A stretch of DNA of 64,000 nt from the NCBI GenBank assembly GCA_017507905.1, contig JAFWAA010000061.1:404-64403 (forward strand). The letters run 5' to 3'. This document shows positions 49,291 to 64,000 of this stretch, piece after piece. Numbering within the stretch: position 1 is the stretch's first letter; every line of letters begins with the position of its first letter. This stretch comes from Clostridia bacterium. Lineage in GTDB: Bacteria > Bacillota > Clostridia > Oscillospirales > CAG-272. Under the pieces are notes generated by a model. The model did no database searches, had not been told where the DNA came from, and saw nothing but the letters and a program-made list of their open reading frames with translations. A program made the translations under genes and the position numbers.

Positions 49291-49310
49291 CTCCCCTTCC
49301 CTTGGGAAAA

Positions 49311-49356
49311 GCCAAAAATAAAGAGCAGACAGAAGATCTCTGTCTGCTCTTTATTT
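49311..49356 (-). terminator. rho-independent terminator of rplS
   Basis: Perfect 18-bp stem (49316-49333 / 49339-49356). A U-run follows on the minus strand. Confidence 0.85.
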
Positions 49357-49374
49357 TGAGCTCGGCGATGCCGA

Positions 49375-50800: not shown

Positions 50801-51931
50801 ATGAAATTGGTAGCAACCTGCCTCTTTGGACTGGAAAAGCTGCTCGGCAGCGAGATCGACGCCCTGGGGCTTCGCCGCATCGAAACGATGGACGGCCGCG
50901 TGATCTTTGAGGGGGAGCCTCGGGATATTCCGCGCGCCAACATCGCCCTGCGCTGCGCCGAGCGTGTGTATATTCTGCTCGGCTCCTTCCCCGCAAAAAG
51001 CTTTGCTGAGCTGTTTGACGGCACGAGAGCCCTCCCCTTTGAAGATTGGATCGGCAAGGATGATCTTTTTCCCGTCAAGGGACACGCCATCAAAAGCAAG
51101 CTCTATTCCCTGCCCGATTGCCAGAGCATTGTGAAAAAGGCCGTGGTTGAGCGGCTTTCCGAAACGTACGGCTGTCGCTGGTTCTCCGAGAGTAGCGGCG
51201 TCAAATACCAGATCGAGTTTTTCCTCTTCAAGGACGTGGCGCACCTGATGATCGACACCAGCGGCGTTGCTCTGCACAAGCGCGGATACCGCCCCGAGGC
51301 AGGTGCCGCTCCCATTCGCGAGACGCTTGCCGCCGCCATCGCCATGACCGCACGCGTCAAGGAGGACACGCTCCTCTGGGATCCCTTCTGCGGCTCGGGC
51401 ACCATTCCGATCGAGGCCGCCCTTCTGGCCACCAACCGCGCGCCAGGCCTTGGCCGCTCCTTTGCGGGCGAAGCCTTTGCCAACCTCCCCGCAAGGCTTT
51501 GGGAGGAGGCACGCGAGGCAGCACGGGGCGCGATCCGCAAAGGCTCTCCCTTTGAGGCCTACGCCTCGGACATTGACGAGGATATTCTTGACCTGGCCTA
51601 CGAAAGCGCACTCCGCGCAGGCGTGGAGGAGCACATCAACATCTTTCAGGCCGACGCACGCAGGATCAAGCGTGAGGACCGCCGCGGCACGATCGCCTGC
51701 AATCCGCCCTACGGCGAGCGGCTGATGACGCCTGCCGAGGTGGCCAAGCTCTACGCCGAGATCGGACGCACCTTTGACGCGCTCTACCCCTGGCAGATCT
51801 ACGTCATCACCTCCTGCGAGGACTTTGAGCGCCTCTACGGACGCCGTGCCGACAAGGCCAAAAAGCTCTACAACGGCATGATCCCCTGCCATCTCTACGA
51901 ATACTTCCGCCCCCGTGAGGCGAAAAAATAA
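50801..51931 (+). CDS. THUMP-domain class I SAM-dependent RNA methyltransferase (RlmL/YpsC-like)
   Basis: ATG at 50801. THUMP N-terminus, then DPFCGSGTIPIEAA and the catalytic NPPYGER motif. Confidence 0.85.
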   Translation: MKLVATCLFGLEKLLGSEIDALGLRRIETMDGRVIFEGEPRDIPRANIALRCAERVYILLGSFPAKSFAELFDGTRALPFEDWIGKDDLFPVKGHAIKSKLYSLPDCQSIVKKAVVERLSETYGCRWFSESSGVKYQIEFFLFKDVAHLMIDTSGVALHKRGYRPEAGAAPIRETLAAAIAMTARVKEDTLLWDPFCGSGTIPIEAALLATNRAPGLGRSFAGEAFANLPARLWEEAREAARGAIRKGSPFEAYASDIDEDILDLAYESALRAGVEEHINIFQADARRIKREDRRGTIACNPPYGERLMTPAEVAKLYAEIGRTFDALYPWQIYVITSCEDFERLYGRRADKAKKLYNGMIPCHLYEYFRPREAKK

Positions 51932-51941
51932 GAATGCAAAC

Positions 51942-51979
51942 AGAGGACTTCTCCAAAAGGAAGAAGCCCTCTTTTTTTC
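51942..51979 (+). terminator. rho-independent terminator of the methyltransferase gene
   Basis: agaggacttc pairs with gaagccctct (one mismatch), followed by a 7-nt T-run. Confidence 0.65.
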
Positions 51980-51980
51980 T

Positions 51981-52793
51981 TTATTCTGCGATCGAAAATA
52001 CCTTCTTGGCGTTCTCGGCAAGCATCCGTCGCATATCCTCCTCGGAAAAGCCGAGCGACAAAAGGGACGCAAGCTCCTCCCTGGGATGCCACATGGGGTA
52101 GTCCGTGCCGAACAGGACGCGATCCGTGCCAAAGCGCAGGATCAGCTCCCGCACGCGCTCGGGCGGCAAAAAGCCGAAGCAGGAGGAGGAATCCACGTAA
52201 AAATTCGGTGCCCCAGCGAGCATCCGCTCCGCGTCCTCCCAGACCGACCAGCCGCCAAGGTGCGCCCCCACGACGGTAAGCCCCTCAAAGATCTCGAGAA
52301 TGGGAAGCATCCGATTGGGATTGGAAAAATCGTAGCGGCGGTCGCCCGTGTGCATCAGAATGGGCAGTCCCTCCTCCTCGCAAAGCTCGTAGATGCGCAG
52401 GAAGCGGAAATCGTCGATCTTGAAGCGCTGAATGTCGGGGTGCAGCTTGACCCCGTGCAGACCGAGGCGCACGATCCTGCGGACGTCGCCCGTAAGGTCC
52501 TCGCTCTCGGGATGAAGCGTGCCAAGACCGGTCAGGCAACCCTTTCCCTGTGCAACCTCCTCGGCAATAAACTCGTTGATGCCCGTGACCTGCTTTGGTG
52601 TGGTGGCGACCGACTGGATCACGAAATGATCCACGCCGTGCGCAAGCCCCTCCTCCATCAGATCCTGCACCGTGCCGCGGCAGACCGAGTGCAGACCGTA
52701 AAAGGTATCCGTGCCCTCTACCGCGCGCGCCGCGATCTTTTCGGGGTAAACGTGGCAGTGCGCGTCAACGACCGCATAGCCTTGGCCGACCAT
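51981..52793 (-). CDS. amidohydrolase_2 (TIM-barrel metal-dependent hydrolase/decarboxylase) family protein
   Basis: 270 aa. VVDAHCHVYP (HxH), GVKLHP, ILMHTG, GTDYPMW. The ATG overlaps the upstream stop (TGATG). Confidence 0.8.
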   Translation of the reverse strand: MVGQGYAVVDAHCHVYPEKIAARAVEGTDTFYGLHSVCRGTVQDLMEEGLAHGVDHFVIQSVATTPKQVTGINEFIAEEVAQGKGCLTGLGTLHPESEDLTGDVRRIVRLGLHGVKLHPDIQRFKIDDFRFLRIYELCEEEGLPILMHTGDRRYDFSNPNRMLPILEIFEGLTVVGAHLGGWSVWEDAERMLAGAPNFYVDSSSCFGFLPPERVRELILRFGTDRVLFGTDYPMWHPREELASLLSLGFSEEDMRRMLAENAKKVFSIAE

Positions 52794-55327
52794 CAGGCAG
52801 TCACCACGCGGCTCGCCTTGTGCAGACCGAGCTTTTCGATGGCCTCCTCACGCATCTTGTACTTGAGGATCTTGCCTGCGGCATTCATCGGGAAGCCCTC
52901 GACGAAGTCCACGTACTTCGGCACCTTGTGGCGCGCCATGTGGTCGCCGACATACTTCTTCATCTCCTCGGCCGTCATGCTCTCGCCATCCTTGAGGACG
53001 ATGCAGGCCATGATCTCCTCGCCGTACTGCTCGTCGGGCACGCCGATGACCTGCACGTCGCGGACCTTGGGATGCGTGTAGATAAACTCCTCGATCTCCT
53101 TGGGATAGATGTTCTCGCCGCCGCGAATGATCATGTCTTTGAGGCGTCCCGTAATGCGGAAGTTTCCGTCCTTGGTGCGACAGGCAAGGTCACCCGTATG
53201 GAGCCAGCCCTCAGCATCAATGGCGGCCGCGGTGGCCTCGGGCATCTTGTAGTAGCCCTTCATCAGGTTGTAGCCGCGTGCCACGAATTCACCCGTGACC
53301 TCGTCGGGGCAATCCTCTCCCGTTTCGGGATTGACGATCTTGCACTCGATCTCGGGCAGGGGACGTCCGACCGTGCCCACGCGGACCTCGATGGGATCGT
53401 CCGTGGAGCTCATGGTGCAGCCCGGGGAGGCCTCGGTCTGGCCGTAAACGATGGTGATCTCCTTCATGTTCATCTTCTCGACCACGTCCTTCATCGTGGA
53501 GATGGGACAGGGGCTTCCCGCCATGATGCCCGTGCGCATATGCGCAAAGCTGGTCTTCTCAAAATCGGGATGCTCCAGGAGCGCGATAAACATGGTGGGC
53601 ACGCCGTGGAAGGCGGTGATGTGCTCGTTGTGAATGCAGGCAAGCGCGGGCTTGGGGGAGAAATACGGCAGGGGCAGAATGGTGCCTCCGTGCGTCATGG
53701 TCGCCGTCATGGCCAGCACCATGCCAAAGCAATGGAACATGGGCACCTGGATCATCATGCGGTCCGCGGTGGAGAGATCCATGCGGTCGCCGATGCATTT
53801 TCCGTTATTGACGATATTATAGTGCGTGAGCATAACGCCCTTGGGGAATCCCGTCGTGCCCGAGGTGTACTGCATATTGCAAACGTCGTCCTTGTTGACG
53901 GCGGCGGCCATGCGGTAGACCTCACGCAGAGGAACGCGTGCGGCTCTCTCGAGTGCCTCGTTCCAATCCATGCAGCCCCTCTGACGGAAGCCGACGGTGA
54001 TGACGTTGCGCAAAAAGGGCAAACGCTTGCTGTGCAGAGGAGAGCCCGTCTTGGTCTCAGCAAGCTCGGGGCAAAGCTCGGCAATGATCTTGCCGTAATG
54101 CGTATCCTTCGAGCCCTCGGTCAAGATCAAGGTATGCGTATCCGACTGCTTGAGCAGGTACTCGGCCTCGTGGATCTTGTAGGCCGTGTTGACCGTGACC
54201 AGCACCGCGCCAAGCTTTACCGTTGCCCAGAAGGCAATATACCACTGCGGCACGTTGGAGGCCCAGACCGCCACGTGCGATCCCGCCTTGACGCCAAGAG
54301 CGATCAGCGCGCGGGCAAATTCGTCCACGTCGTCGCGGAATTCGCTATACGTGCGCGTATAATCCAGCGTCGTATACTTGAAGGCGTACTGGTCGGGAAA
54401 TTCCTCGACCATGCGGTCAAGCACCTGCGAGAAGGTCGCGTCGATGAGCGCCTCCTTCTTCCAGACGTACTTGCCCGTGTGGGCCTTGTTATAGTAAAGC
54501 GCAGGCTCCTTGCGGGAGGTGTCGCTATACTGCTTCATGTAGTTGACGAACTGGGAGAAGATGATCTCCATGTCGTCCAGCTCCTCGCACCAGCGCGGAT
54601 CCCAGACCAGGGAGAGGAAGCCGTCGTAATTGACCGAGCGGAGCGCCAGCATCATGGACTTCAGGGGCAGCTCCCCTTCTCCGACCAGGCAATACTCGAG
54701 GCCGTCCTCGGTCATGCGCGCATCGCTGACGTGCACGTGACGGACGTAAGCGCCCAGATGCTTGATGACCTGCTCGGCGCTCTCGCCGCCTCCAAAGTAA
54801 GCGGCAGACAAATTCCAGAGTGCGCCCAGAAAGTCGCAGGCAAAGCGCTCGAGAAGCGTGCGCAGCGTCTCGGCACGGCAGAACAGACCAAAGGTCTCAA
54901 TCAGCAGAGTGATCCCCTTCTCCTCGGCCACCGGCAAAAGCGTTTCCAAGAGCCCTGCGATGCGCTCGATCGCCGCGGCGTTTTTCTCCGCACTGCCGGC
55001 GTCGCTCGCCTTGAGGCGGATAAAGGGAATGTGCAGATTGGAGGCGACCTCCATGCAGGAGAGGATCTCCTGCACGTCACGCTCTCCGTCCTGTGCCTTG
55101 CCAAGATCGCAAACGGTGTCCATGCAGACCACCGTCAGCTTCTTCTCGTACAGGCGCCGCAGAGTTGCCGCGCTGGCATAGCCGTGGAAGGCGCCGTCGC
55201 GGTCGGTGAACATCGCATTATAAATATTGTGCAGCTCGATGCCCTCAAATTTCAGATCCTCGGCAACGTCGCAAAACTCCTCAAAGCTGCGTCCGTGCCA
55301 GCCCTTGGTGGAAAAGGAAAGCTTCAT
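52793..55327 (-). CDS. fusion protein: xylose-isomerase-like TIM barrel plus AMP-forming acyl-CoA synthetase/ligase
   Basis: 844 aa. The first ~280 aa match the AP-endonuclease-2 / sugar-phosphate-isomerase fold (KFEGIELH, LLIETF, VRHVHVSD, YDGFLSLVWDP). The rest is an adenylate-forming enzyme (MQYTSGTTGFPKGV, WLHTGDLA, GRLKDMIIRGGENIYP, GKILK). GGAGG RBS. The ATG overlaps the upstream stop (ATGA). Confidence 0.85.
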   Translation of the reverse strand: MKLSFSTKGWHGRSFEEFCDVAEDLKFEGIELHNIYNAMFTDRDGAFHGYASAATLRRLYEKKLTVVCMDTVCDLGKAQDGERDVQEILSCMEVASNLHIPFIRLKASDAGSAEKNAAAIERIAGLLETLLPVAEEKGITLLIETFGLFCRAETLRTLLERFACDFLGALWNLSAAYFGGGESAEQVIKHLGAYVRHVHVSDARMTEDGLEYCLVGEGELPLKSMMLALRSVNYDGFLSLVWDPRWCEELDDMEIIFSQFVNYMKQYSDTSRKEPALYYNKAHTGKYVWKKEALIDATFSQVLDRMVEEFPDQYAFKYTTLDYTRTYSEFRDDVDEFARALIALGVKAGSHVAVWASNVPQWYIAFWATVKLGAVLVTVNTAYKIHEAEYLLKQSDTHTLILTEGSKDTHYGKIIAELCPELAETKTGSPLHSKRLPFLRNVITVGFRQRGCMDWNEALERAARVPLREVYRMAAAVNKDDVCNMQYTSGTTGFPKGVMLTHYNIVNNGKCIGDRMDLSTADRMMIQVPMFHCFGMVLAMTATMTHGGTILPLPYFSPKPALACIHNEHITAFHGVPTMFIALLEHPDFEKTSFAHMRTGIMAGSPCPISTMKDVVEKMNMKEITIVYGQTEASPGCTMSSTDDPIEVRVGTVGRPLPEIECKIVNPETGEDCPDEVTGEFVARGYNLMKGYYKMPEATAAAIDAEGWLHTGDLACRTKDGNFRITGRLKDMIIRGGENIYPKEIEEFIYTHPKVRDVQVIGVPDEQYGEEIMACIVLKDGESMTAEEMKKYVGDHMARHKVPKYVDFVEGFPMNAAGKILKYKMREEAIEKLGLHKASRVVTA

Positions 55328-56706
55328 GCCTGGACCTCCTCGTAAACGATCTTATTGATCGCGTTGATGTATGCACGGATGCTTGCACCGATGATGTCGG
55401 TGGAGATCCCGTTGCCCGAATAGAGCTTGCCGTCGGCGCGGAGCTTGACCAGAGCCGATCCCATGGCCTCCTTGCCCTCGGTGACCGCCTGGATCTGGAA
55501 ATCGTCCAGCTCGTAGCGGTGTCCGACGATCTGCTCGATGGCGCGGAAGGCGGCGTCGATCGGACCGTCACCGATGGAAATCCCCTGCATGGTCTCTCCG
55601 TTCTTCTCCATCGTGATCTGTGCGGTGGAGGAGATGACGTTGCCGTTGTTGACGACGTAAGCCTTGATCTGATAGGTCGCGGGGACCTGCAGAGCCACGC
55701 TCGCGATCACGGCCTCCAGCTCCTTGGAGCCGACCTGGCGGTTGCGGCTGACGCGGCAGAACTCCTCGTAGACCTTTGCGCGGTCCTCCTCGGAGAGATC
55801 GTAGCCAAGCTGTACGGCGGCCGCATCCACGGCCTCGCGCCCGTCGTTGGCGTCCAGACGGATCTCGGCCTGCTCGGCGGCAGGAGAGAGCACGAGCTTC
55901 TCGCTCTTTGCGCCGTCAATGATCCAACGGATCTGCTTGACGTTGCGGTGCAGCTCGGTCGCGCGGACGGCCGTGCAGAGCTCGTAGGTGTTTCCGCAAT
56001 TCTTGATCATATCCACGAAGGCCTCAAGCGAGACGGCCTCGCCCAAAACCGCCGTCTTGACGCCGTCAACGCCTGCACGGACGGCCAGAGCAGCCGATGC
56101 CGCGGCCATGCCGTTCTTATCGTTGCAGCGCACGTAAACGGGAACGGAGATGCGCTTGGCGATCTCCCCTGCAAAGGCGGCAAAATCGTCGGGCATCATC
56201 TCGGCGGCACTGTCGCAAAGGGTGACCGAGGTCGCGCCCGCGCCGATAGCGGCCTGCAAAGCGGCCTCAAGCACCTCGCGCTCGGCGCGCGTGGCGTCCA
56301 CGGCGCAAAGCTCCACGTCGGGGCAGGCCTGCTTTGCCTCGGCCACGCAGGCAGCGATCCACTCGATCATCTTGGGTGCCTTCTTGTGGCAGGCATACTC
56401 CATTCCCACGGGAGAGACGGGCAGCTCGATGCGGATACGGGGATGGGCGGCACCCGAAAGCGCCGCGGCCGCCAGGGCCACGCTTCCCGCTGCCATACCT
56501 GCGCCAACCGAAAGCACGCTTCCCTTAACGAAGGAGGAAACCGTGCGCACGAGCAGGGAGTCGGTCTTGGCATTGGTGATCTCGGGGAGCTCGATGGCGT
56601 CCACGTTCAGCTTCTCCAGCTGACGGGCGATCTCGATGCGCTCCTTGAAGCTGAGGGCGCCCTCAGCGCTCAAAAGCGTTGTGTCTGCAATTCTGATCTG
56701 TTTCAT
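55324..56706 (-). CDS. 2-isopropylmalate synthase-like protein with degenerate catalytic motifs and an intact LeuA regulatory domain
   Basis: ATG at 56706 follows AAAGGAGAGG. HMGL-like barrel in which DTTLRDGEQ is DTTLLSAEG and H-x-H-D-D-L-G is VRCNDKNG. C-terminal LeuA-dimer domain (GDGPIDAAFRAIEQI...GISTDIIGASIRAYINAINK). Confidence 0.75.
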   Translation of the reverse strand: MKQIRIADTTLLSAEGALSFKERIEIARQLEKLNVDAIELPEITNAKTDSLLVRTVSSFVKGSVLSVGAGMAAGSVALAAAALSGAAHPRIRIELPVSPVGMEYACHKKAPKMIEWIAACVAEAKQACPDVELCAVDATRAEREVLEAALQAAIGAGATSVTLCDSAAEMMPDDFAAFAGEIAKRISVPVYVRCNDKNGMAAASAALAVRAGVDGVKTAVLGEAVSLEAFVDMIKNCGNTYELCTAVRATELHRNVKQIRWIIDGAKSEKLVLSPAAEQAEIRLDANDGREAVDAAAVQLGYDLSEEDRAKVYEEFCRVSRNRQVGSKELEAVIASVALQVPATYQIKAYVVNNGNVISSTAQITMEKNGETMQGISIGDGPIDAAFRAIEQIVGHRYELDDFQIQAVTEGKEAMGSALVKLRADGKLYSGNGISTDIIGASIRAYINAINKIVYEEVQA

Positions 56707-56751
56707 GTTACCTCTCCTTTTTCTGTGTTCTCGTCGGAGACGGGGAATGCC

Positions 56752-57020
56752 GAAAATAAACAAGCCCCCGGGATCGGCCAATACCGATCCCGGGGACGAA
56801 AAAACACTTTCGCGGTACCACCCCGGTTGCTGCCATAGCAGCCACCTTTTTCCGAATTCCAACAAATTCTCTGCCATGATAACGGGGCAAGCCGTAGACG
56901 CTTACTGGACTTCAGCACCTCTGCTCCGGAATGAGACTTCCCTTCTCGCTCACGCCGACTCGCACCTACCGTCGGCTCTCTGAGGTGAGGAATGAAAAGC
57001 GGAATAATTCCTTCAACGCA
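56752..57020 (-). promoter_or_regulatory. T-box riboswitch leader, specifier CUC (Leu)
   Basis: Minus strand. Stem I (57020-56922) has a K-turn UGC-GUUGA...GGA-GCA, AG bulge AGAGAG, distal loop GGUAGGUGCGA, and specifier CUC-A at 56935-56932. F-box-like CCGUUA is present. T-box core GGGGUGGUACCGCG lies at 56824-56811. The terminator is a 12-bp stem (56766-56777 / 56784-56795) followed by a U-run. Confidence 0.85.
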
Positions 57021-57043
57021 TTTACATTTGAATGATGGAAATG

Positions 57044-57072
57044 ATTATAGCACGCTTTTCCCCTTTTGTCAA
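57044..57072 (-). promoter_or_regulatory. sigma-A type promoter of the Leu T-box operon
   Basis: On the minus strand: TTGACA (57072-57067), 17-bp spacer, TATAAT (57049-57044). Confidence 0.7.
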
Positions 57073-57134
57073 GGGCTTTTGCAAATTTTTCTTGAAATCC
57101 GCAAAAAATCAGGCGTTTTACCAAAGGTGTGGGA

Positions 57135-57674
57135 TCAGGCCTCGTAATCCGCGCCCAGCTGCATTGCCTTGAGGTTGACCTCAAGCATATCCGCGCGCTT
57201 GGCGGAAATGACCTTCCTCAGTGCGGCCTCGACCTTTTCCACGTCGAACTGTCCAAGCTCCTTGAGGATCTTGCCCAGAAGGATCATGTTGGCAAGCGTG
57301 GGCGTGCCGTTGTCGCTCGCCATCTGCGTGGCGGGGATCTTGACCAGCTTGACGTCTTTTCTCTCGATGTCTCTTGCGATCAGCGTGGAGTCGGCAAAGA
57401 TGATGCCGCCCGGCACCACCGCAGACTCAAAGCGATCGAGGGACGGAAGGTTCATGGCCACCAGAACGTCGGGATTGGAGACGATGGGAGAGCCCACGGG
57501 CGTGTCGCTGACGATCACGCTGCAGCTCGCCGTTCCGCCGCGCATCTCGGGACCGTAGGAAGGAAGCCAGCTGACCTGCTTATCCTCGGTCAATCCCTTA
57601 TACGCCATCAGCTTTCCGACGAACAGAATGCCCTGTCCGCCAAAGCCGGAGAACAAAAACTTGGTTGTACTCAT
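57135..57674 (-). CDS. 2-oxoacid:ferredoxin oxidoreductase, gamma subunit
   Basis: 179 aa. [22 protein letters not shown]... AGGAGG RBS. The start overlaps the beta-subunit stop. Confidence 0.88.
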
Positions 57675-58426
57675 TTCTCTGCCTCCTGACTTGCCGATCT
57701 GTCCTTATAGACACCCAAGGGGTAATACGGCAGCATTTTTTCGTCGATCCACTCCAGCGCCTGCTTGGGCGTCATGCCCCAGTTGGTGGGACAGGAGGAA
57801 ACGACCTCGACCAGAGAAAAGCCCTTGCCGTCGATCTGATTCTGGAAGGCCTTCTTGATGGCCTTCTTGGCGTTCTTGACGTTCTTGACGTTATTGACGG
57901 TCACACGCTCAAGATACTCGGGGCCCTCAAGCTCGGAGAGCAGTTCGCAAACGCGAATGGGGTATCCGCAATGCTTGACGTCGCGTCCGTAGGGCGAGGT
58001 CTGCGTGACCTGGCCGGGGAGCGAGGTGGGAGCCATCTGTCCGCCCGTCATGCCGTAGATCGCATTGTTGACGAAGATGACCGTGATGTTCTCGTTGCGC
58101 GCGGCGGCGTGCACCGTCTCGGCCATACCGATGGACGCGAGGTCACCGTCACCCTGATAGGTGAAGACCACGTTCTCGGGATTGGCGCGCTTAACGCCCG
58201 TAGCGACTGCGGGAGCGCGTCCGTGCGCCGCCTCGATCATGTCGCAGTTGAAGTAATCGTAAGCCATGACCGAGCAGCCGACCGGTGCGATACCGACCGT
58301 CTTGCCCTCAATGCCAAGCTCATCCATGACCTCGGCCACCAGGCGGTGAATGATGCCGTGGGTGCAGCCGGGGCAATAATGCAGAGGAAGATCTGCCAAT
58401 GCGTTAGGCTTCTGAAAAACGATCAT
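57671..58426 (-). CDS. 2-oxoacid:ferredoxin oxidoreductase, beta (TPP-binding) subunit
   Basis: 251 aa. [10 protein letters not shown] and GDGDLASIG (TPP motif). GGAGG RBS. Confidence 0.9.
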
Positions 58427-59496
58427 TCGTTCTTACCTCCATTCTTTGCAGCCTTAAGGATCGCGTCAAGCACCTGCTCGGGGGACGGGATCATTCCGCC
58501 CACGCGATTGCACAGGGTGACGGGAACGCGGCACTCGGTGGCCAAACGAACGTCCTCGATCATCTGTCCCATGGACAGCTCTACCGAAATGACCTCCTTG
58601 ACCTGCTCTGCCGCGCGGCGGAAGGGTGCCTTCGGGAAGGGCCAAAGCGTGATGGGACGGATCATACCGACCTTAATGCCCATCGCTCTTGCCTCGTCGA
58701 TGGCGTTCTTCGATACGCGAGCGGCAATACCGAAGGCGGCAATGCAGATCTCTGCATCCTCCATGCGGTATTCCTCGTACATCGTTTCCTTCTCCTCGAT
58801 CACGCGATAGCGATCGTAGCGCTCAAAGTTGGTCTCTTCGAGCTTTTCGGGAGAGAGGAACAGAGAGTTAATCACGTTATGCGGACGCTTCATGCCCGTT
58901 CCCGTCACGGCCCAAGGCTTCTCGGGCATGGGGGTCACGGGGAGATCGTCCAGGGCCACGGGCTCCATCATCTGTCCCATGGTTCCGTCGGCCAGGATCA
59001 TGGCCGTCATGCGATAGGTATCCGCCAGAGCAAAGCCCTTTACGGTCAGCTCTGCCATCTCCTGCACCGAGGAGGGGGCAAGAACGATCATGCGGAAGTC
59101 GCCGTGTCCGCCGCCCTTGGTGGCCTGGAAATAATCCGACTGGCTGGGCTGAATGCCGCCAAGTCCCGGGCCGCCGCGCTGGACGTTGACCACAAGCGAG
59201 GGCAGGTCCGCACCGGCAAGGTAGGAAAGTCCCTCACTCTTGAGCGAAATTCCGGGGCTGGAGGAGGAGGTCATCACGCGGCGTCCTGCCGCTGCAACGC
59301 CGTAGACCATGTTAATGGCCGCGATCTCACTCTCGGCCTGCAGAAACACGCCGCCGATCTTGGGCATTCTCTTGGCCATGTAGGCCGCGATCTCGGTCTG
59401 GGGAGTAATGGGATAGCCGAAGTAGTGGCGGCAGCCTGCACGAATGGCCGCTTCCGCGATGGCTTCGTTTCCCTTCATCAAAACCTTATCTGCCAT
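58423..59496 (-). CDS. 2-oxoacid:ferredoxin oxidoreductase, alpha subunit (VorB/KorA-like)
   Basis: [36 protein letters not shown]...[17 protein letters not shown] at 59496 follows AAGGTGA (a GTG at 59505 is also possible). Confidence 0.88.
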
Positions 59497-59505
59497 ATTC
59501 TTCAC

Positions 59506-59712
59506 TCACCTTTCCACTTCAATGATGCAGTCGGGGCACATGGTCGCGCAGAAGGCGCAGCCGATGCAGGCCTCCTCGTTGGCGGCCTCCACGGGGTGGT
59601 GTCCCTTTTGGTTGATCTTGTCGGGGGACAGACGAAGGACCTGCTTGGGGCAGGCGTCAACACAAAGCCCACAGCCCTTGCATTTGTCGGTCTTAAAGGT
59701 TAATTTTGCCAT
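59506..59712 (-). CDS. 2-oxoacid:ferredoxin oxidoreductase, delta subunit (2x[4Fe-4S] ferredoxin)
   Basis: 68 aa. CKGCGLCVDACP and CIGCAFCATMCP. Confidence 0.9.
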   Translation of the reverse strand: MAKLTFKTDKCKGCGLCVDACPKQVLRLSPDKINQKGHHPVEAANEEACIGCAFCATMCPDCIIEVER

Positions 59713-59738: not shown

Positions 59739-60398
59739 TTAACAAATTTTTTCTTGCAGGTCAAGGGGGAAAAGCCCCTCGATCTGCTCCTTGAGCGTCT
59801 CGTAAAGAGATGCGCGCACGGTCGTCATGCGTACGGGAAGCCCCGATGCGCGGCTGACCTCCTCGGCGTACCGGAGGGAGGCAAGCACGTCCTCGGGAGA
59901 GGTCATCTCACCGAGATTGGAATTGTTGACCAGGCCCGTAAAGCGCATTCCGCAAGCGGTCTCGATCTCCCCAAGCACCTCAAGCGTGGAGGGGACGTCC
60001 TGCGTCAGCGGGCGGTAGCAATTGATGACCGCCAGCATTTCGTAGTTCCCTTCCTCGCGCAGTGCGGGAGAAATGCGTCCCAGCGCCAGCGCGCCGCGAT
60101 CGTCGCCGCCAACGTCGATCACCGCAGAGCGGCTCTTATCGTCCGTGATGGCGTAAAGGTCGGCCGGGAGCGCGGGAATATCCAGATTGGTGTTGGCGTA
60201 TTCCGAGCAGATCAGGCGAATGCCTGCCGCCTCCAGCTCCTTGCGGCTGTCCTTGGTTCGGAAATAGGGATTGACGATGTCCAGGTCTGCGACCGTGACC
60301 TCCTCCCCGCTCCGCCGAAGATGAAGGGCATAATTGACGGCAATATTGGTCTTGCCGCTACCGTAATGCCCGCAAAAAAGCGTTACCCGTTTTTTCAT
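59739..60398 (-). CDS. P-loop NTPase (MinD/ParA/CooC-like) of unknown role
   Basis: About 219 aa. Walker A CGHYGSGKTN, DLDIVNPYF, VIDVGGDD. Sits between the acyl-CoA synthetase and the oxidoreductase genes. Confidence 0.7.
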   Translation of the reverse strand: MKKRVTLFCGHYGSGKTNIAVNYALHLRRSGEEVTVADLDIVNPYFRTKDSRKELEAAGIRLICSEYANTNLDIPALPADLYAITDDKSRSAVIDVGGDDRGALALGRISPALREEGNYEMLAVINCYRPLTQDVPSTLEVLGEIETACGMRFTGLVNNSNLGEMTSPEDVLASLRYAEEVSRASGLPVRMTTVRASLYETLKEQIEGLFPLDLQEKIC

Positions 60399-60410
60399 AC
60401 ACAAAAAGCC

Positions 60411-62702
60411 TCAAAGCATATTGCGGCGGATCTTGCCGCTGGTGGTCTTGGGAAGCTCGTCGCGGAAGACGACCAGACGCGGATACTTGTAGGGAGCGGT
60501 ATGCTCCTTGACGTAGCGCTGGATCTCCTTCTTGAGCTCCTCGGTGGGCTCGGTGCCGGGCGTCAGAACGATGCTCGCCTTGACGATCTGTCCGCGCACC
60601 TCGTCGGGAGCGGCCGAAACGCCGCACTCGAGAACGTAAGGAAGCTCCATGATGACGCTCTCGATCTCAAAGGGACCGATGCGGTAGCCCGAGGACTTGA
60701 TGACGTCGTCCACGCGGCCGACGTACCAGTAGAAGCCGTCCTCATCGCGCCACGCGGTGTCTCCCGTATGGTAGTAGCCGTCGTGCCAAGCCTCGGCGGT
60801 CTTCTCAGGATCGTTGTAGTAGCCCACGGAAAGTCCGCAGGGATAGCCGTTTTTGAGGCTGACGACGATCTCGCCCGTCTCACCCACGGCCACGGGATTG
60901 CCCTCGGCGTCCACCAGCTCCACGTCGTAGATCGGTGCGGGCTTGCCCATCGAGCCGATCTTATGCGGCGCACCCGTCATGTTTCCGATGATCATGGTGC
61001 TCTCGGATTGACCAAAGCCCTCGAGGATCTGCAATCCCGTTGCCTTCTCGAACTGACGGTAGACCTCGGGGTTGAGTGCCTCGCCCGCCGTGGTCATGTG
61101 CTGGACCGAGGAGAAATCGTACTTGGAAATATCCTGCTTGATCATCATGCGCAGCATCGTGGGAGGTGCGCAGAAGGTGGTGATGCCGTACTTGGCAAAC
61201 ATGGGAAGGATATCCGAGGCGTCGAAGCGGTCGAAATCGTAAACGAAGGTGGCCGCCTCGCAGAGCCACTGGCCGTAGAACTTGCCCCACATGGATTTTG
61301 CCCAGCCCGTATCCGAGATGGTAAAGTGCAGGCCGTCGGGATCCACGTTGTGCCAGTATTTTGCCGTATGGAAATGTCCAAGCGGATACTTGTAGTTATG
61401 TGCGGCAATCTTGGGATAGCCCGAGGTGCCCGACGTAAAGAACATCAGCATCAGATCGTCGCCGCCCGGTGCATTCTCCGGACGCTTGTAGTGCGTGCTG
61501 TAAAGCGTGTATTCCTCGTCAAAGCTTCTCCAGCCCTCGCGCTCGCCGCCAACCAGCATCTTGTGCTTGAGGGTGGGAGAGGAGGCGGCGGCAAGCTCCA
61601 CCTGCTCTGCCACGCCGTCGTCGGCGGTGCAGATGATGGCAGAGATGCCTGCGCTCTTGAAGCGATACTCAAAATCGTGCGCCTGGAGCTGGTTGGTGGC
61701 GGGAATGCCGATGGCACCCAGCTTGTTCAGTCCGAGCATGGCGGCCCAGAACTGGTAATGCCGCTTGAGCACCAGCATCACGCGGTCGCCCTTCTTGATG
61801 CCGAGCGACTTGAAGTAGTTGGCACACTGGGCAGACATCTTCTTCATGTCCTTGAAGGTGAAGCGACGCTCGGTCTTGTCCTTGGAGACGTGCAGCATGG
61901 CCAGACGGTCAGGCTCGCGCTCGGCGAGGGCGTCGATCAGATCAAAGGCGAAGTTGAAGTTGTCGATATTCTGGAATTGGATCGAGGTAGGCGTGCCGTT
62001 CTCGTCGACCTCGGTCTTGATAAAGCGGTGATAGATGCGCTCGCGATCGTCCCTCTTGGGTGCGCGCGCAGGCTCGCGAATGGCCTTGGTGGGGGTCAAT
62101 TCGGGAATGGGCTCGCCCGTGGGATTGAGAACGATGGCGTAGAATACGCAATCCTTTCCGCCAACGGCGATCATGCCGTGCGGCGTGTCACTGTCAAAGT
62201 AGATGCTGTCACCGGGGCCCAGCACCTCGCGATGCTCGCCCACCTGCACCATCAGCTGTCCCTCCACGACGAGGTCGCATTCCTGGCCTGCGTGCGTGGT
62301 CAGCTCAATGTCCCTTTGCTGTGCCTCGGGATCATAGGTGCTGCGCACGTACAGCGGCTCGGCAATACGGTTCTGGAAGGCGTAGGCCAGGTTGTAGTAG
62401 GTCATGCCGTGCGCCTGTGCGATCTTCTGTCCCGCACCCGCACGGGTGACGGTAAAGGATTTCAGCGTCGGGCTCTGACCCTCGATGATATCGGTAACGT
62501 TGACGTTGAGCGTCATGGCGCAGCGATAGATGAACGCAAAGTTCAGATCGCTCTCGCCCGACTCACAGCGAATGTATTCGGCAACGTCCACACCCGTCTT
62601 CTGCGCCATCTCCTCGGGGGAAAGCCCCTCGATCTCGCGCAGCTCGCGGATACGCGCCGCCATTTCCCGGATCTTAAAATCCAGTCCCTTCATTTGTTCC
62701 AT
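60411..62702 (-). CDS. fusion protein: XRE-type HTH plus cupin plus medium-chain-type AMP-forming acyl-CoA synthetase
   Basis: ATG at 62702 follows AAAGGGGA. HTH (IRELREIEGLSPEEMAQKTGVDVAEYIRCESGES), cupin (GQECDLVVEGQL...GDSIYFDSDTPHG), then the ACS (FFTSGTSGYPK, YHTGDTAWRDEDGFYWYVGRVDDVIKSSGYRIGPFEIES, SGKIRR). Confidence 0.85.
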   Translation of the reverse strand: MEQMKGLDFKIREMAARIRELREIEGLSPEEMAQKTGVDVAEYIRCESGESDLNFAFIYRCAMTLNVNVTDIIEGQSPTLKSFTVTRAGAGQKIAQAHGMTYYNLAYAFQNRIAEPLYVRSTYDPEAQQRDIELTTHAGQECDLVVEGQLMVQVGEHREVLGPGDSIYFDSDTPHGMIAVGGKDCVFYAIVLNPTGEPIPELTPTKAIREPARAPKRDDRERIYHRFIKTEVDENGTPTSIQFQNIDNFNFAFDLIDALAEREPDRLAMLHVSKDKTERRFTFKDMKKMSAQCANYFKSLGIKKGDRVMLVLKRHYQFWAAMLGLNKLGAIGIPATNQLQAHDFEYRFKSAGISAIICTADDGVAEQVELAAASSPTLKHKMLVGGEREGWRSFDEEYTLYSTHYKRPENAPGGDDLMLMFFTSGTSGYPKIAAHNYKYPLGHFHTAKYWHNVDPDGLHFTISDTGWAKSMWGKFYGQWLCEAATFVYDFDRFDASDILPMFAKYGITTFCAPPTMLRMMIKQDISKYDFSSVQHMTTAGEALNPEVYRQFEKATGLQILEGFGQSESTMIIGNMTGAPHKIGSMGKPAPIYDVELVDAEGNPVAVGETGEIVVSLKNGYPCGLSVGYYNDPEKTAEAWHDGYYHTGDTAWRDEDGFYWYVGRVDDVIKSSGYRIGPFEIESVIMELPYVLECGVSAAPDEVRGQIVKASIVLTPGTEPTEELKKEIQRYVKEHTAPYKYPRLVVFRDELPKTTSGKIRRNML
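61137..61223. repeat. 87-nt block identical to 63816-63902 (inside paralogous acyl-CoA synthetase genes)
   Basis: cttgatcatcatgcgcagcatcgtgggaggtgcgcagaaggtggtgatgccgtacttggcaaacatgggaaggatatccgaggcgtc occurs in both copies. The flanking sequence is clearly diverged. Confidence 0.9.
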
Positions 62703-62747
62703 TCCGTGTCCCCTTTCTGATGCGCAGATCCCTGCACATCGGCGGGC

Positions 62748-63010
62748 AAATACAAAACGCACTCGCCCCAAAGTTCGTTGCTTTGAGACGAGTGCGAAAT
62801 CACCCGCGGTACCACTCAAATTACGGCTCTCGCCGTCACTCCGGATCTGACAATCCTTATGCCTTGACGCAGCAATCACGGGAAGGTTCTACGGCCGCGA
62901 GGCTTTCTTCCTTCCGACTCGGGAGCTACAAGCAAACACCCTCTCCTATGGCTCGCACCGTCCGCCATTTCTCTGTAAGGATCCGATCAATGCCCTTCTC
63001 CGTCACCGTC
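62748..63010 (-). promoter_or_regulatory. T-box riboswitch leader, specifier GUA (Val)
   Basis: Minus strand. Stem I (63010-62916) has a K-turn GAC-GGUGA...GA-GUC, AG bulge AGAGA, distal loop GGACGGUGCGA, and specifier GUA-G at 62929-62926. T-box core GAGUGGUACCGCGGG lies at 62817-62803. The terminator stem is cgcactcg.../...cgagtgcg (62758-62796), followed by UUUUGUAUUU. Confidence 0.82.
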
Positions 63011-63028
63011 TTTCCTATGAATGAAACT

Positions 63029-63057
63029 ATTTTAGCACAACTTTGTCTTTTTGTCAA
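63029..63057 (-). promoter_or_regulatory. sigma-A type promoter of the Val T-box operon
   Basis: On the minus strand: TTGACA (63057-63052), 17-bp spacer, TAAAAT (63034-63029). Confidence 0.7.
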
Positions 63058-63089: not shown

Positions 63090-64000
63090 TCAAAGCTTGT
63101 TTCTCTGGATCTTTCCGCTGATGGTCTTGGGAAGCTCATCGCGGAAGACGACGATACGCGGATACTTGTAAGGCGCGGTATGTTCCTTGACGTACTGCTG
63201 GATCTCCTTCTTGAGTGCCTCGGTGGGCTCGGTTCCCTTGACCAGCACGACGCTGGCCTTGACGACCTGTCCGCGCACCTCGTCGGGGGCTGCGGAGACG
63301 CCGCACTCAAGGACGTAGGGCAGCTCCATGATGACGCTCTCGATCTCAAAGGGCCCAATGCGGTAGCCCGAGGACTTGATGACGTCATCCACGCGGCCAA
63401 CGTACCAGAAGAAGCCGTCCTCGTCACGCCACGCGGTGTCGCCCGTGTGGTAGAGGCCATCATGCCATACCTCGTCGGTCTTTTCCTGATTTTTGTAGTA
63501 TCCCGCAAACAGCCCACAGGGGATCTTCTTGTCGGTGTGAATGACGATCTCGCCGACCTCACCCACGGGAACGGGGTTGCCGTCGGGATCGACCAGATCC
63601 ACGTCGTAGAAGGGCACGGGACGGCCCATCGAGCCGAGCTTGTGTGCGCCTCCCATAAGGTTGGCGATGGTAAGGGTGGTCTCGGTCTGTCCGAAGCCCT
63701 CCATGGTCTGCAGGCCCGTGGCCTCCTCAAACTTGCGGTAGACCTCGGGGTTGAGTGCCTCGCCTGCCGTGGTCATGTGACGAATGGAGGAAAGATCGTA
63801 CTTGCTGATGTCCTCCTTGATCATCATGCGCAGCATCGTGGGAGGTGCGCAGAAGGTGGTGATGCCGTACTTGGCAAACATGGGAAGGATATCCGAGGCG
63901 TCAAAGCGATCAAAGTCATAGGTAAAGACCGCACCCTCGCAGAGCCACTGGCCGTAGAGCTTGCCCCAGAGGGCCTTGCCCCAGCCCGTATCCGAGATGG
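63090..64000 (-). CDS. medium-chain-type AMP-forming acyl-CoA synthetase, paralogue (N-terminus outside window)
   Basis: The frame is open to the window edge (...ISDTGWGKALWGKLYGQWLCEGAVFTYDFDRFDASDILPMFAKYG...SGKIQRNKL). It is closely related in protein and DNA sequence to the C-terminal part of 60411-62702. Confidence 0.88.
   Translation of the reverse strand, partial: ISDTGWGKALWGKLYGQWLCEGAVFTYDFDRFDASDILPMFAKYGITTFCAPPTMLRMMIKEDISKYDLSSIRHMTTAGEALNPEVYRKFEEATGLQTMEGFGQTETTLTIANLMGGAHKLGSMGRPVPFYDVDLVDPDGNPVPVGEVGEIVIHTDKKIPCGLFAGYYKNQEKTDEVWHDGLYHTGDTAWRDEDGFFWYVGRVDDVIKSSGYRIGPFEIESVIMELPYVLECGVSAAPDEVRGQVVKASVVLVKGTEPTEALKKEIQQYVKEHTAPYKYPRIVVFRDELPKTISGKIQRNKL
63816..63902. repeat. 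87-nt block identical to 61137-61223
   Basis: See the 61137-61223 repeat entry. Confidence 0.9.

Follow-up and report, generated by a model that had tools for sequence, protein, structure and literature searches.

The stretch of DNA analysed here, termed the window, comprises 64,000 nt of the Clostridia bacterium assembly GCA_017507905.1 (contig JAFWAA010000061.1, positions 404-64,403), and all positions given below are window-numbered. On its minus strand it contains a T-box leader, termed leader B, which lies between an operon for a predicted ferredoxin oxidoreductase and three genes encoding a LeuA-like protein, a TIM-barrel/acyl-CoA ligase fusion and an amidohydrolase (the trio). The gap between the stop codon of the oxidoreductase gamma subunit gene (57135) and the start codon of the first gene of the trio (56706) is 428 nt long, as the initial annotation had stated. 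The whole window was compared with all 4227 Rfam families, using the curated gathering scores as thresholds. Leader B was the sole match above the gathering score: the region from 57025 to 56789, which spans Stem I to the antiterminator, matched RF00230 (T-box) with 120.4 bits versus a gathering score of 93 (E 4.2e-26, model positions 1-219). The T-box had been proposed from the sequence, together with a suggestion to search with RF00230, and both this search and the covariation in 64 leaders described below bore out the proposal. From promoter to terminator (57072-56754), the region is predicted with high confidence to be a canonical transcription-attenuating T-box for tRNA-Leu(GAG), with respect to RNA identity, specificity and switch architecture.

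Relatives of the downstream LeuA-like gene were collected from reference genomes, which resulted in 81 upstream regions. The exact T-box core was found in 75 of them, and 64 leaders were aligned (alignment A2). Leader B is preceded by a sigma-70-type promoter at 57072-57044, which consists of TTGACA (57072-57067), a spacer of 17 nt and TATAAT (57049-57044), matches the consensus at 12 of 12 positions and has the TG of an extended -10 element. The base of Stem I is a K-turn (UGC-GUUGA ... GGA-GCA) that was read in the sequence as well as recovered by the covariance model. It is followed by the AG bulge AGAGAG (56976-56981; model consensus AGAGA) and the distal loop GGUAGGUGCGA (56970-56960; model consensus GgUUGGUGaaA). 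The columns of both elements are nearly invariant in the alignment, and together they would form the platform for the tRNA elbow. The covariance model also located the F-box CCGUUA in the Stem IIA/B region (56880-56885), which is invariant in the alignment, and the T-box core GGGGUGGUACCGCG (56811-56824), which includes the UGGU bulge (56820-56817). The promoter, the three Stem I elements, the F-box and the T-box core were thus all found where the initial annotation had placed them. The terminator scan revealed an intrinsic terminator at 56754-56797, with a stem of 15 bp (56797-56764), the loop UAUU and the tail UUGUUUAUUU. In this case the earlier description was right about the presence of a terminator followed by a U-run, but not about the stem length, because it had counted only the perfect core of 12 bp. 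The start codon of the first regulated gene at 56706 is preceded by AAGGAGAGG.

One element is not part of the Rfam model. Between the F-box and Stem III an extra hairpin, GAAUUU-GUUG-GAAUUC, was found at 56854-56869, which belongs to an insertion of 22 nt relative to RF00230. In the alignment of 64 leaders this hairpin (helix 9, columns 190-207) had compensatory changes in five of its seven pairs, and 97.5% of the cells were paired. Because it is an insertion relative to the model and covaries, it is regarded as a lineage-specific addition. Its loop and its flanks (UUG...GA) are also conserved across the relatives.

The structure of the leader was supported by covariation. RNAalifold detected compensatory changes in 41 of 60 pairs of the alignment. 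In addition, an explicit T-box structure including the antiterminator was set up, and its pairs were counted on the same 64 leaders. In total, 94.9% of the cells could pair, compared with 40-48% when the partners were slid by one to three columns, 36 of 51 pairs changed on both sides, and none of 500 shuffles matched the observed values. Covariation was seen for the helices of Stem I and also for the terminator stem (columns 280-290 with 304-314). The F-box and the short helix 163-165/175-177 were present, both were invariant, and they are thus uninformative in this respect. The antiterminator helix A1 paired in 89.8% of the cells and the antiterminator helix A2 in 100%. The antiterminator pair 248-283 is A-U in 53 leaders and G-C in 10 leaders, with a concurrent change in the base that pairs with column 283 in the terminator. 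Such joint change is expected of a strand that is shared by two competing helices. In the window the sequence common to both is GUCCCCG, which is the 5' arm of the terminator and the 3' strand of the antiterminator. The folding energies were -33.4 kcal/mol for the terminator and -17.2 kcal/mol for the antiterminator. As the terminator is far more stable and shares GUCCCCG with the antiterminator, termination is taken to be the default.

The specifier of leader B is CUC (56933-56935), which encodes leucine and is followed by the purine A (56932) and the helix strand UUCC (56931-56928). In the alignment to the covariance model, the 3' side of the specifier loop is occupied by GAAGU-CUC-A-UUCC, where the closing helix comes after the codon and the A. 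In the 64 leaders the specifier columns 110-112 contained CUC in 59 cases and CUG in five cases, i.e., a leucine codon without exception, and a wider motif count resulted in 67 CUC and five CUG. A purine followed the codon in 63 leaders, and the bulge UGGUACC was present in all 64. The initial annotation had read the specifier as CUC followed by A and had matched UGGU to A73 of tRNA-Leu; both readings agree with these results. It had also cited a CUC precedent in the ilv-leu leader of Bacillus subtilis, which could be confirmed (Marta et al. 1996, listed in PMC2494555). Genes for tRNA-Leu(GAG) were found in two related loci, L024 and L033, both of which carry a leader with CUC and UGGU. The tRNA sequences end with ...CACUCGC-A-CCA, and therefore the discriminator A73 fits the U of UGGU. 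They are predicted to be the tRNAs that the CUC leader in the same operon would sense. The two tRNA genes (L024:12820-12903 and L033:12804-12887) have their own consensus promoter and are located about 110-125 nt 3' of the amidohydrolase gene.

Based on these features, transcription would start at the strong promoter of leader B, the specifier CUC in Stem I would pair with the GAG anticodon, and the platform of AG bulge and distal loop would dock the tRNA elbow. An uncharged tRNA would also pair through its free 3' end ACCA with the UGGU bulge and thereby stabilise the weak antiterminator. Otherwise the stronger terminator would form, and transcription would end 58 nt before the first gene.

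The operon upstream of leader B has a T-box leader of its own, leader A (62758-63057, minus strand), which was detected with RF00230 and with the promoter and terminator scans. It consists of a promoter at 63057-63029 (11 of 12 consensus positions), a T-box at 63015-62781 and a terminator at 62796-62758 with a stem of 16 bp. Its score of 72.9 bits is below the gathering score of 93 (E 2.8e-14). The specifier is GUA (62929-62927), which encodes valine and is followed by G (62926), and the UGGU bulge is at 62814-62811. In relatives the corresponding leaders have GUA in 45 loci and GUC in 17 loci, and a ligase of the MacS/MbcS type is encoded beneath them. The earlier proposal that two T-boxes of different amino acid specificity lie in series on one strand was therefore correct. 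No terminator-like site was found by the terminator scan between the gamma subunit stop codon (57135) and the promoter of leader B, which also agrees with the initial annotation. In the related locus L007, 22 nt separate the end of ilvE from the promoter of leader B, again with no terminator between the two. A promoter of the leader B type was present in all 64 homologous leaders, with 11-12 matches of 12, and nearly all had the TG. With its own promoter and an upstream operon that lacks a terminator, leader B is therefore expected to start a transcription unit and also to decide the fate of incoming transcripts. Transcripts from the valine-controlled operon would reach leader B and then be ended or extended in response to the leucine signal. 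Six loci (L002, L003, L005, L072, L098 and L138) have no Leu leader, and the trio follows directly behind ilvE or the gamma subunit gene, with gaps of about 20-120 nt. This arrangement would place the trio under the valine leader alone.

The first gene under leader A (60411-62708, minus strand, as are all genes described here) encodes an acyl-CoA ligase with XRE-type helix-turn-helix (HTH), cupin and MacS-type ligase domains according to Pfam. The best match in the Protein Data Bank (PDB) was 3ETC, with 630 bits and an E value of 4e-188, and the best NCBIfam model was MbcS, with 432 bits, which is below the cutoff of 850. The combination of an N-terminal HTH and a cupin resembles a small-molecule-responsive regulator fused to an enzyme, and the same arrangement is seen in the paralogue of relatives. 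The protein of 3ETC is Macs of Methanosarcina acetivorans, which is described in PMC10455477 as preferring 2-methylbutyrate. For MbcS, PMC10026030 gives 2-methylbutyrate and isobutyrate as activated acids and isovalerate as a poor substrate.

The next gene (59739-60404) encodes a P-loop protein that is MinD/ParA/NUBPL-like according to Pfam and had no NCBIfam match. It is conserved and always lies between this ligase gene and the oxidoreductase genes. The following genes would encode a 2-ketoisovalerate:ferredoxin oxidoreductase (VOR), whose four subunits are encoded together. The delta subunit (59506-59712, 68 aa) is a 2x[4Fe-4S] ferredoxin with two CxxCxxCxxxCP motifs; its reading frame had been missed by an open reading frame list with a minimum of 80 aa. 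The alpha subunit (58423-59505) matched the NCBIfam model VorB (NF005507) with 543 bits versus a cutoff of 399. The beta subunit (57671-58426) and the gamma subunit (57135-57674) were assigned by Pfam, and the domains found among the subunits were POR_N, TPP_enzyme_C and POR. In most relatives the gene after the gamma subunit gene encodes a branched-chain aminotransferase (IlvE; 476 bits versus a cutoff of 307). This ilvE stands between the gamma subunit gene and leader B; the gap in the window (56707-57134) does not contain it.

The trio downstream of leader B starts with the gene for the LeuA-like protein (55324-56706), which has an HMGL-like TIM barrel (PF00682, 86 bits) and a LeuA_dimer domain (PF08502, 110 bits). 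The second gene (52793-55327) encodes a protein of 844 aa in which Pfam recognised a xylose-isomerase-like TIM barrel fused to an AMP-forming acyl-CoA ligase, and the third gene (51981-52793) encodes an Amidohydro_2 family protein of 270 aa (PF04909, 123 bits). The operon is closed by a terminator at 51942-51972, with a stem of 13 bp, 9 nt after the stop codon of the amidohydrolase gene. The genes overlap: the stop codon of the LeuA-like gene and the start codon of the fusion gene share ATGA (55324-55327), and the stop codon of the latter and the start codon of the amidohydrolase gene share TGATG (52791-52795). These overlaps suggest translational coupling and possibly a protein complex. The three genes were found together in almost all of 80 reference loci.

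The LeuA-like protein was compared with the LeuA structures 3ewb and 3rmj. It has DTTLLSAEG in place of DTTLRDGEQ and RCNDK in place of HCH(D/N)D. In an alignment of 24 family members (alignment A1) the substrate-binding Arg was replaced by Cys in 23 and the metal-binding Asp by Arg or Lys in 22 members. The position of the first metal-binding His was occupied by R, K, S, C, G, A or F, and that of the second by N, S, D, E, Y or T. The C-terminal regulatory domain was the best conserved part, with a column identity of 88% versus 75% for the barrel. Among the LeuA equivalogs of NCBIfam the best match was NF002086, with 256.8 bits versus a cutoff of 532, and the others were even further below their cutoffs. 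Because the catalytic Arg, Asp and both His residues are lost and the LeuA models score far below their cutoffs, the protein is predicted to be a LeuA-derived pseudoenzyme and not an isopropylmalate synthase. The family occurs in at least 574 reference species, and most of its members carry the name "hypothetical protein", which is also the one used by NCBI. The protein of the window is 81-82% identical to its nearest relatives, and the flanking genes are 93-98% identical to those of locus L001. It is also a family outlier at positions 12-13, with L and S instead of C and R/K. Possible reasons for the divergence are faster evolution of this gene or recombination within it.

The best NCBIfam model for the fusion protein was PRK12583 (fatty acid CoA ligase family), with 684 bits versus a cutoff of 832. 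Its TIM-barrel domain had 8z1i ("Art22", E 9e-9) as the best PDB match, which gave no functional lead, and the papers retrieved by a literature search for "Art22" were all unrelated. The best PDB match of the amidohydrolase was 3irs, an uncharacterised protein that likewise gave no functional lead.

The comparison with relatives revealed the usual layout of the cluster. It comprises an Ile leader followed by a first ligase gene; a Val leader followed by a second ligase gene and the genes for the P-loop protein, VOR delta, alpha, beta and gamma, and IlvE; and a Leu leader followed by the genes for the LeuA-like protein, the fusion ligase and the amidohydrolase. The order is permuted in some loci. 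The Ile leader is a third T-box, with the specifier AUC, which was found before the equivalent upstream ligase gene in 29 loci of metagenome relatives and was confirmed by the covariance model, e.g., at L089:619-859 with 101 bits. In the window a truncated paralogue of the MacS-type ligase (63093-64000) runs off the edge; it is 80% identical to the ligase under leader A over residues 464-765. As relatives have an AUC T-box before the equivalent gene, a third leader is probably located just beyond the edge of the window.

Taken together, the gene content points to a pathway that makes branched-chain amino acids out of branched-chain fatty acids. A ligase would convert a branched short-chain acid to its acyl-CoA, VOR would convert the acyl-CoA with CO2 and reduced ferredoxin to the 2-oxoacid, and IlvE would convert the 2-oxoacid to the amino acid. 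In ruminococci the carboxylation of isovalerate to leucine is classical physiology, and the incorporation of isobutyrate into valine has likewise been described (Allison et al. 1962, 1966, cited in PMC7356843). The pathway is supported by the scores of VorB and, in relatives, IlvE above their curated cutoffs, by the MacS/MbcS-type ligases under the Ile and Val leaders, and by the six loci in which the trio is joined directly behind VOR or ilvE without a leader of its own. It is well supported for the valine arm and likely for the whole cluster. The substrate range of MbcS fits the use of MacS/MbcS-type ligases in the isoleucine and valine arms and of a different ligase class in the leucine arm. 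In the latter the substrate of the fusion ligase would be isovalerate, and the LeuA-like protein would serve as a leucine-sensing, non-catalytic partner. This assignment of the leucine arm is tentative, with a chance of being correct that falls a little short of even. The same caution applies to the more general model, which is put forward as possible at slightly less than even confidence. According to this model, three T-boxes (Ile AUC, Val GUA/GUC, Leu CUC/CUG) split a widespread cluster of Oscillospirales into arms with one acyl-CoA ligase each and a shared VOR/IlvE core, and the pseudoenzyme of the leucine arm is a leucine sensor like HisZ, or the module performs a new chemistry towards 2-oxoisocaproate.

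Several observations limit or weigh against these interpretations of leader B and of the cluster. The window of 64 kb contains no tRNA gene, and the host's own tRNA-Leu(GAG) was thus not seen there. We infer the tRNA binding, the antitermination and the leucine response of leader B from its family membership, and the substrates and roles of the three Leu-controlled proteins from their domains and gene context. Neither ilvE nor a second LeuA homologue was detected in the window by tblastn, although most relatives carry ilvE. For the ligase domain of the fusion protein, no NCBIfam model reached its curated cutoff. Furthermore, the activation of isovalerate requires a ligase only, which leaves the TIM barrel, the amidohydrolase and the LeuA-like protein unexplained. 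No oxidoreductase is encoded in the Leu-controlled operon itself, and in several loci the trio is far from any VOR. Starvation for leucine only would leave VOR and IlvE to leaky or valine-dependent expression from upstream, or to copies elsewhere.

Alternative explanations concern the RNA as well as the proteins. The sequence GUCUCA at the specifier also contains the overlapping triplets GUC (Val), UCU (Ser) and UCA (Ser), and a second valine leader is conceivable because leader A upstream is valine-specific. The specifier might thus be read in another register and another tRNA be sensed. However, the CUC/CUG register is the only one that results in a single amino acid across the 64 leaders, while the others are mixed (Ser/Pro at -1, Val/Ala/Phe/Ile at -2, Ser/Trp at +1), and CUC/CUG is the triplet that immediately precedes the conserved purine and the helix that closes the loop. 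The registers GUC, UCU and UCA were dismissed as contradicted by the alignment, and a non-leucine specifier is extremely improbable. It was also considered that leader B is mainly an intercistronic attenuator, i.e., an internal leucine checkpoint in one long transcript that starts at the valine leader. The lack of a terminator before leader B in the window and between ilvE and leader B in L007 would be in accordance with this, and so would the six loci without leader B in which the trio follows straight behind VOR or ilvE. Yet the near-consensus promoter with its extended -10 lies just 5' of Stem I in each of the 64 leaders, and in many loci the trio and leader B are located away from any VOR operon. 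As its main function the attenuator role is therefore rather unlikely; probably both roles coexist, and leader B is not merely an internal attenuator.

With regard to the proteins, leader B could control ordinary leucine biosynthesis, with a working 2-isopropylmalate synthase as the first gene product, as in B. subtilis ilv-leu and Geobacter leuA. The HMGL-like and LeuA_dimer domains would agree with this, LeuA models are the best NCBIfam matches, and JGI labels one cluster "2-isopropylmalate synthase". But the substrate Arg, the metal Asp and both metal His residues are replaced, the His positions vary freely, the best equivalog reaches about 257 bits instead of 532, the NCBI name is "hypothetical protein", and leuB, leuC and leuD are absent from the window and from the related loci that were compared with the window proteins. 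Canonical LeuA function was discarded for the first gene on the basis of the catalytic residues and the curated cutoffs, and it is very improbable. A different possibility is that the trio performs an undescribed multi-step conversion to a leucine precursor, by carboxylation or salvage, in which the ligase substrate is not isovalerate and VOR is not used. Three TIM-barrel-type proteins plus a ligase exceed the needs of isovalerate activation, the amidohydrolase retains the HxH and Asp motifs that characterise active members and has reversible decarboxylases among its relatives, and in many loci the trio has no neighbouring VOR. On the other hand, the gene set matches no known pathway, for the TIM domain and the amidohydrolase only weak or uncharacterised PDB matches were obtained, and the frequent linkage to VOR-ilvE, which is direct in six loci, argues for a shared pathway. 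Such a conversion is thus unlikely, but it has to be taken seriously as an alternative to isovalerate activation in a three-arm cluster.

The leader itself is ordinary and adds nothing new to T-box biology. It shares with other RF00230 leaders, e.g., those of tyrS and glyQS, the Stem I K-turn, the specifier loop, the AG bulge, the distal loop, Stem II, the F-box, Stem III, the 14-nt T-box sequence, the UGGN bulge and the competing terminator. Nothing essential differs apart from the inserted hairpin. The targets are unusual; they do not fall among the aminoacyl-tRNA synthetases, biosynthetic enzymes or transporters. The leader of B. subtilis ilv-leu is also a Leu T-box with a CUC specifier that acts by termination/antitermination on leucine-supply genes, including one for a LeuA-family protein. 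In contrast, the LeuA homologue here lacks the catalytic residues, the fusion ligase and the amidohydrolase are present instead of ilv and leuBCD, and leader B contains the extra covarying hairpin before Stem III and follows a valine-controlled operon immediately, without an intervening terminator.

The thrZ leader of B. subtilis is an example of tandem T-boxes, which have one specificity and form a single leader. As in that case, several elements lie in series on one strand and are passed by one RNA polymerase. Unlike in thrZ, the specificities differ (Val and Leu in the window; Ile, Val and Leu in relatives), each element has its own promoter, and genes lie between them, so that the elements divide the cluster into amino acid arms and do not multiply one signal.

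HisZ is a catalytically dead paralogue of HisRS. In the HisZ-HisG(S) ATP phosphoribosyltransferase it is described as boosting catalysis and mediating the feedback inhibition by histidine (PMC9734150). It may serve as a model for the LeuA-like protein, which by analogy and as judged from its sequence would also be enzyme-derived and have lost catalysis while keeping an amino-acid-binding module and being co-expressed with a catalytic partner. The reductive carboxylation of isovalerate and isobutyrate in the rumen was defined by labelling (Allison et al. 1962, 1966; Allison and Peel 1971, cited in PMC7356843). This physiology is matched by the putative branched-acid CoA ligases, VOR and IlvE of the cluster, by its occurrence in Ruminococcus/Oscillospirales of rumen and gut, and by its predicted control through amino acid starvation. 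In contrast, the classical scheme does not include roles for the LeuA-like protein, the TIM domain or the amidohydrolase.

The regulon of the Leu leader appears to be undescribed. Among the papers searched, none was found that links T-boxes to VOR or reductive carboxylation, that describes LeuA pseudoenzymes, or that ties isovalerate carboxylation to these genes or to T-box control; an earlier listing of such targets in Vitreschak et al. 2008 or in TBDB is possible. The amino acid of a T-box can be read directly from its sequence. In this way three acyl-CoA ligases that would otherwise be ambiguous are allotted by the three leaders to the supply of Ile, Val and Leu. If the three-arm reading is true, the specifier codons label the enzymes for 2-methylbutyrate, isobutyrate and isovalerate, and this would be the first gene-level account of the isovalerate carboxylation route to leucine known since the 1960s. 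The leaders would also connect a 2-oxoacid oxidoreductase that depends on ferredoxin with biosynthesis and not with degradation. Candidate genes would thereby be available for the branched-chain fatty acid requirement of Ruminococcaceae of rumen and gut, which bears on fibre digestion and on the supplementation of ruminants with such acids. In addition, a large family of LeuA-derived putative pseudoenzymes under leucine control is brought to attention.

Two further signals of the Rfam scan were rejected. A fluoride riboswitch match at 51677-51741 (plus strand) had 18.6 bits versus a gathering score of 34 (E 0.48), was located within a coding region and was regarded as a chance match. MicroRNA matches on both strands at 49310-49362 had about 30 bits versus gathering scores of 82-100 and reflect a plain hairpin. 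This hairpin is nearly perfect, has 25 bp and is located between rplS and a zinc-ribbon gene, where it is probably a bidirectional terminator.

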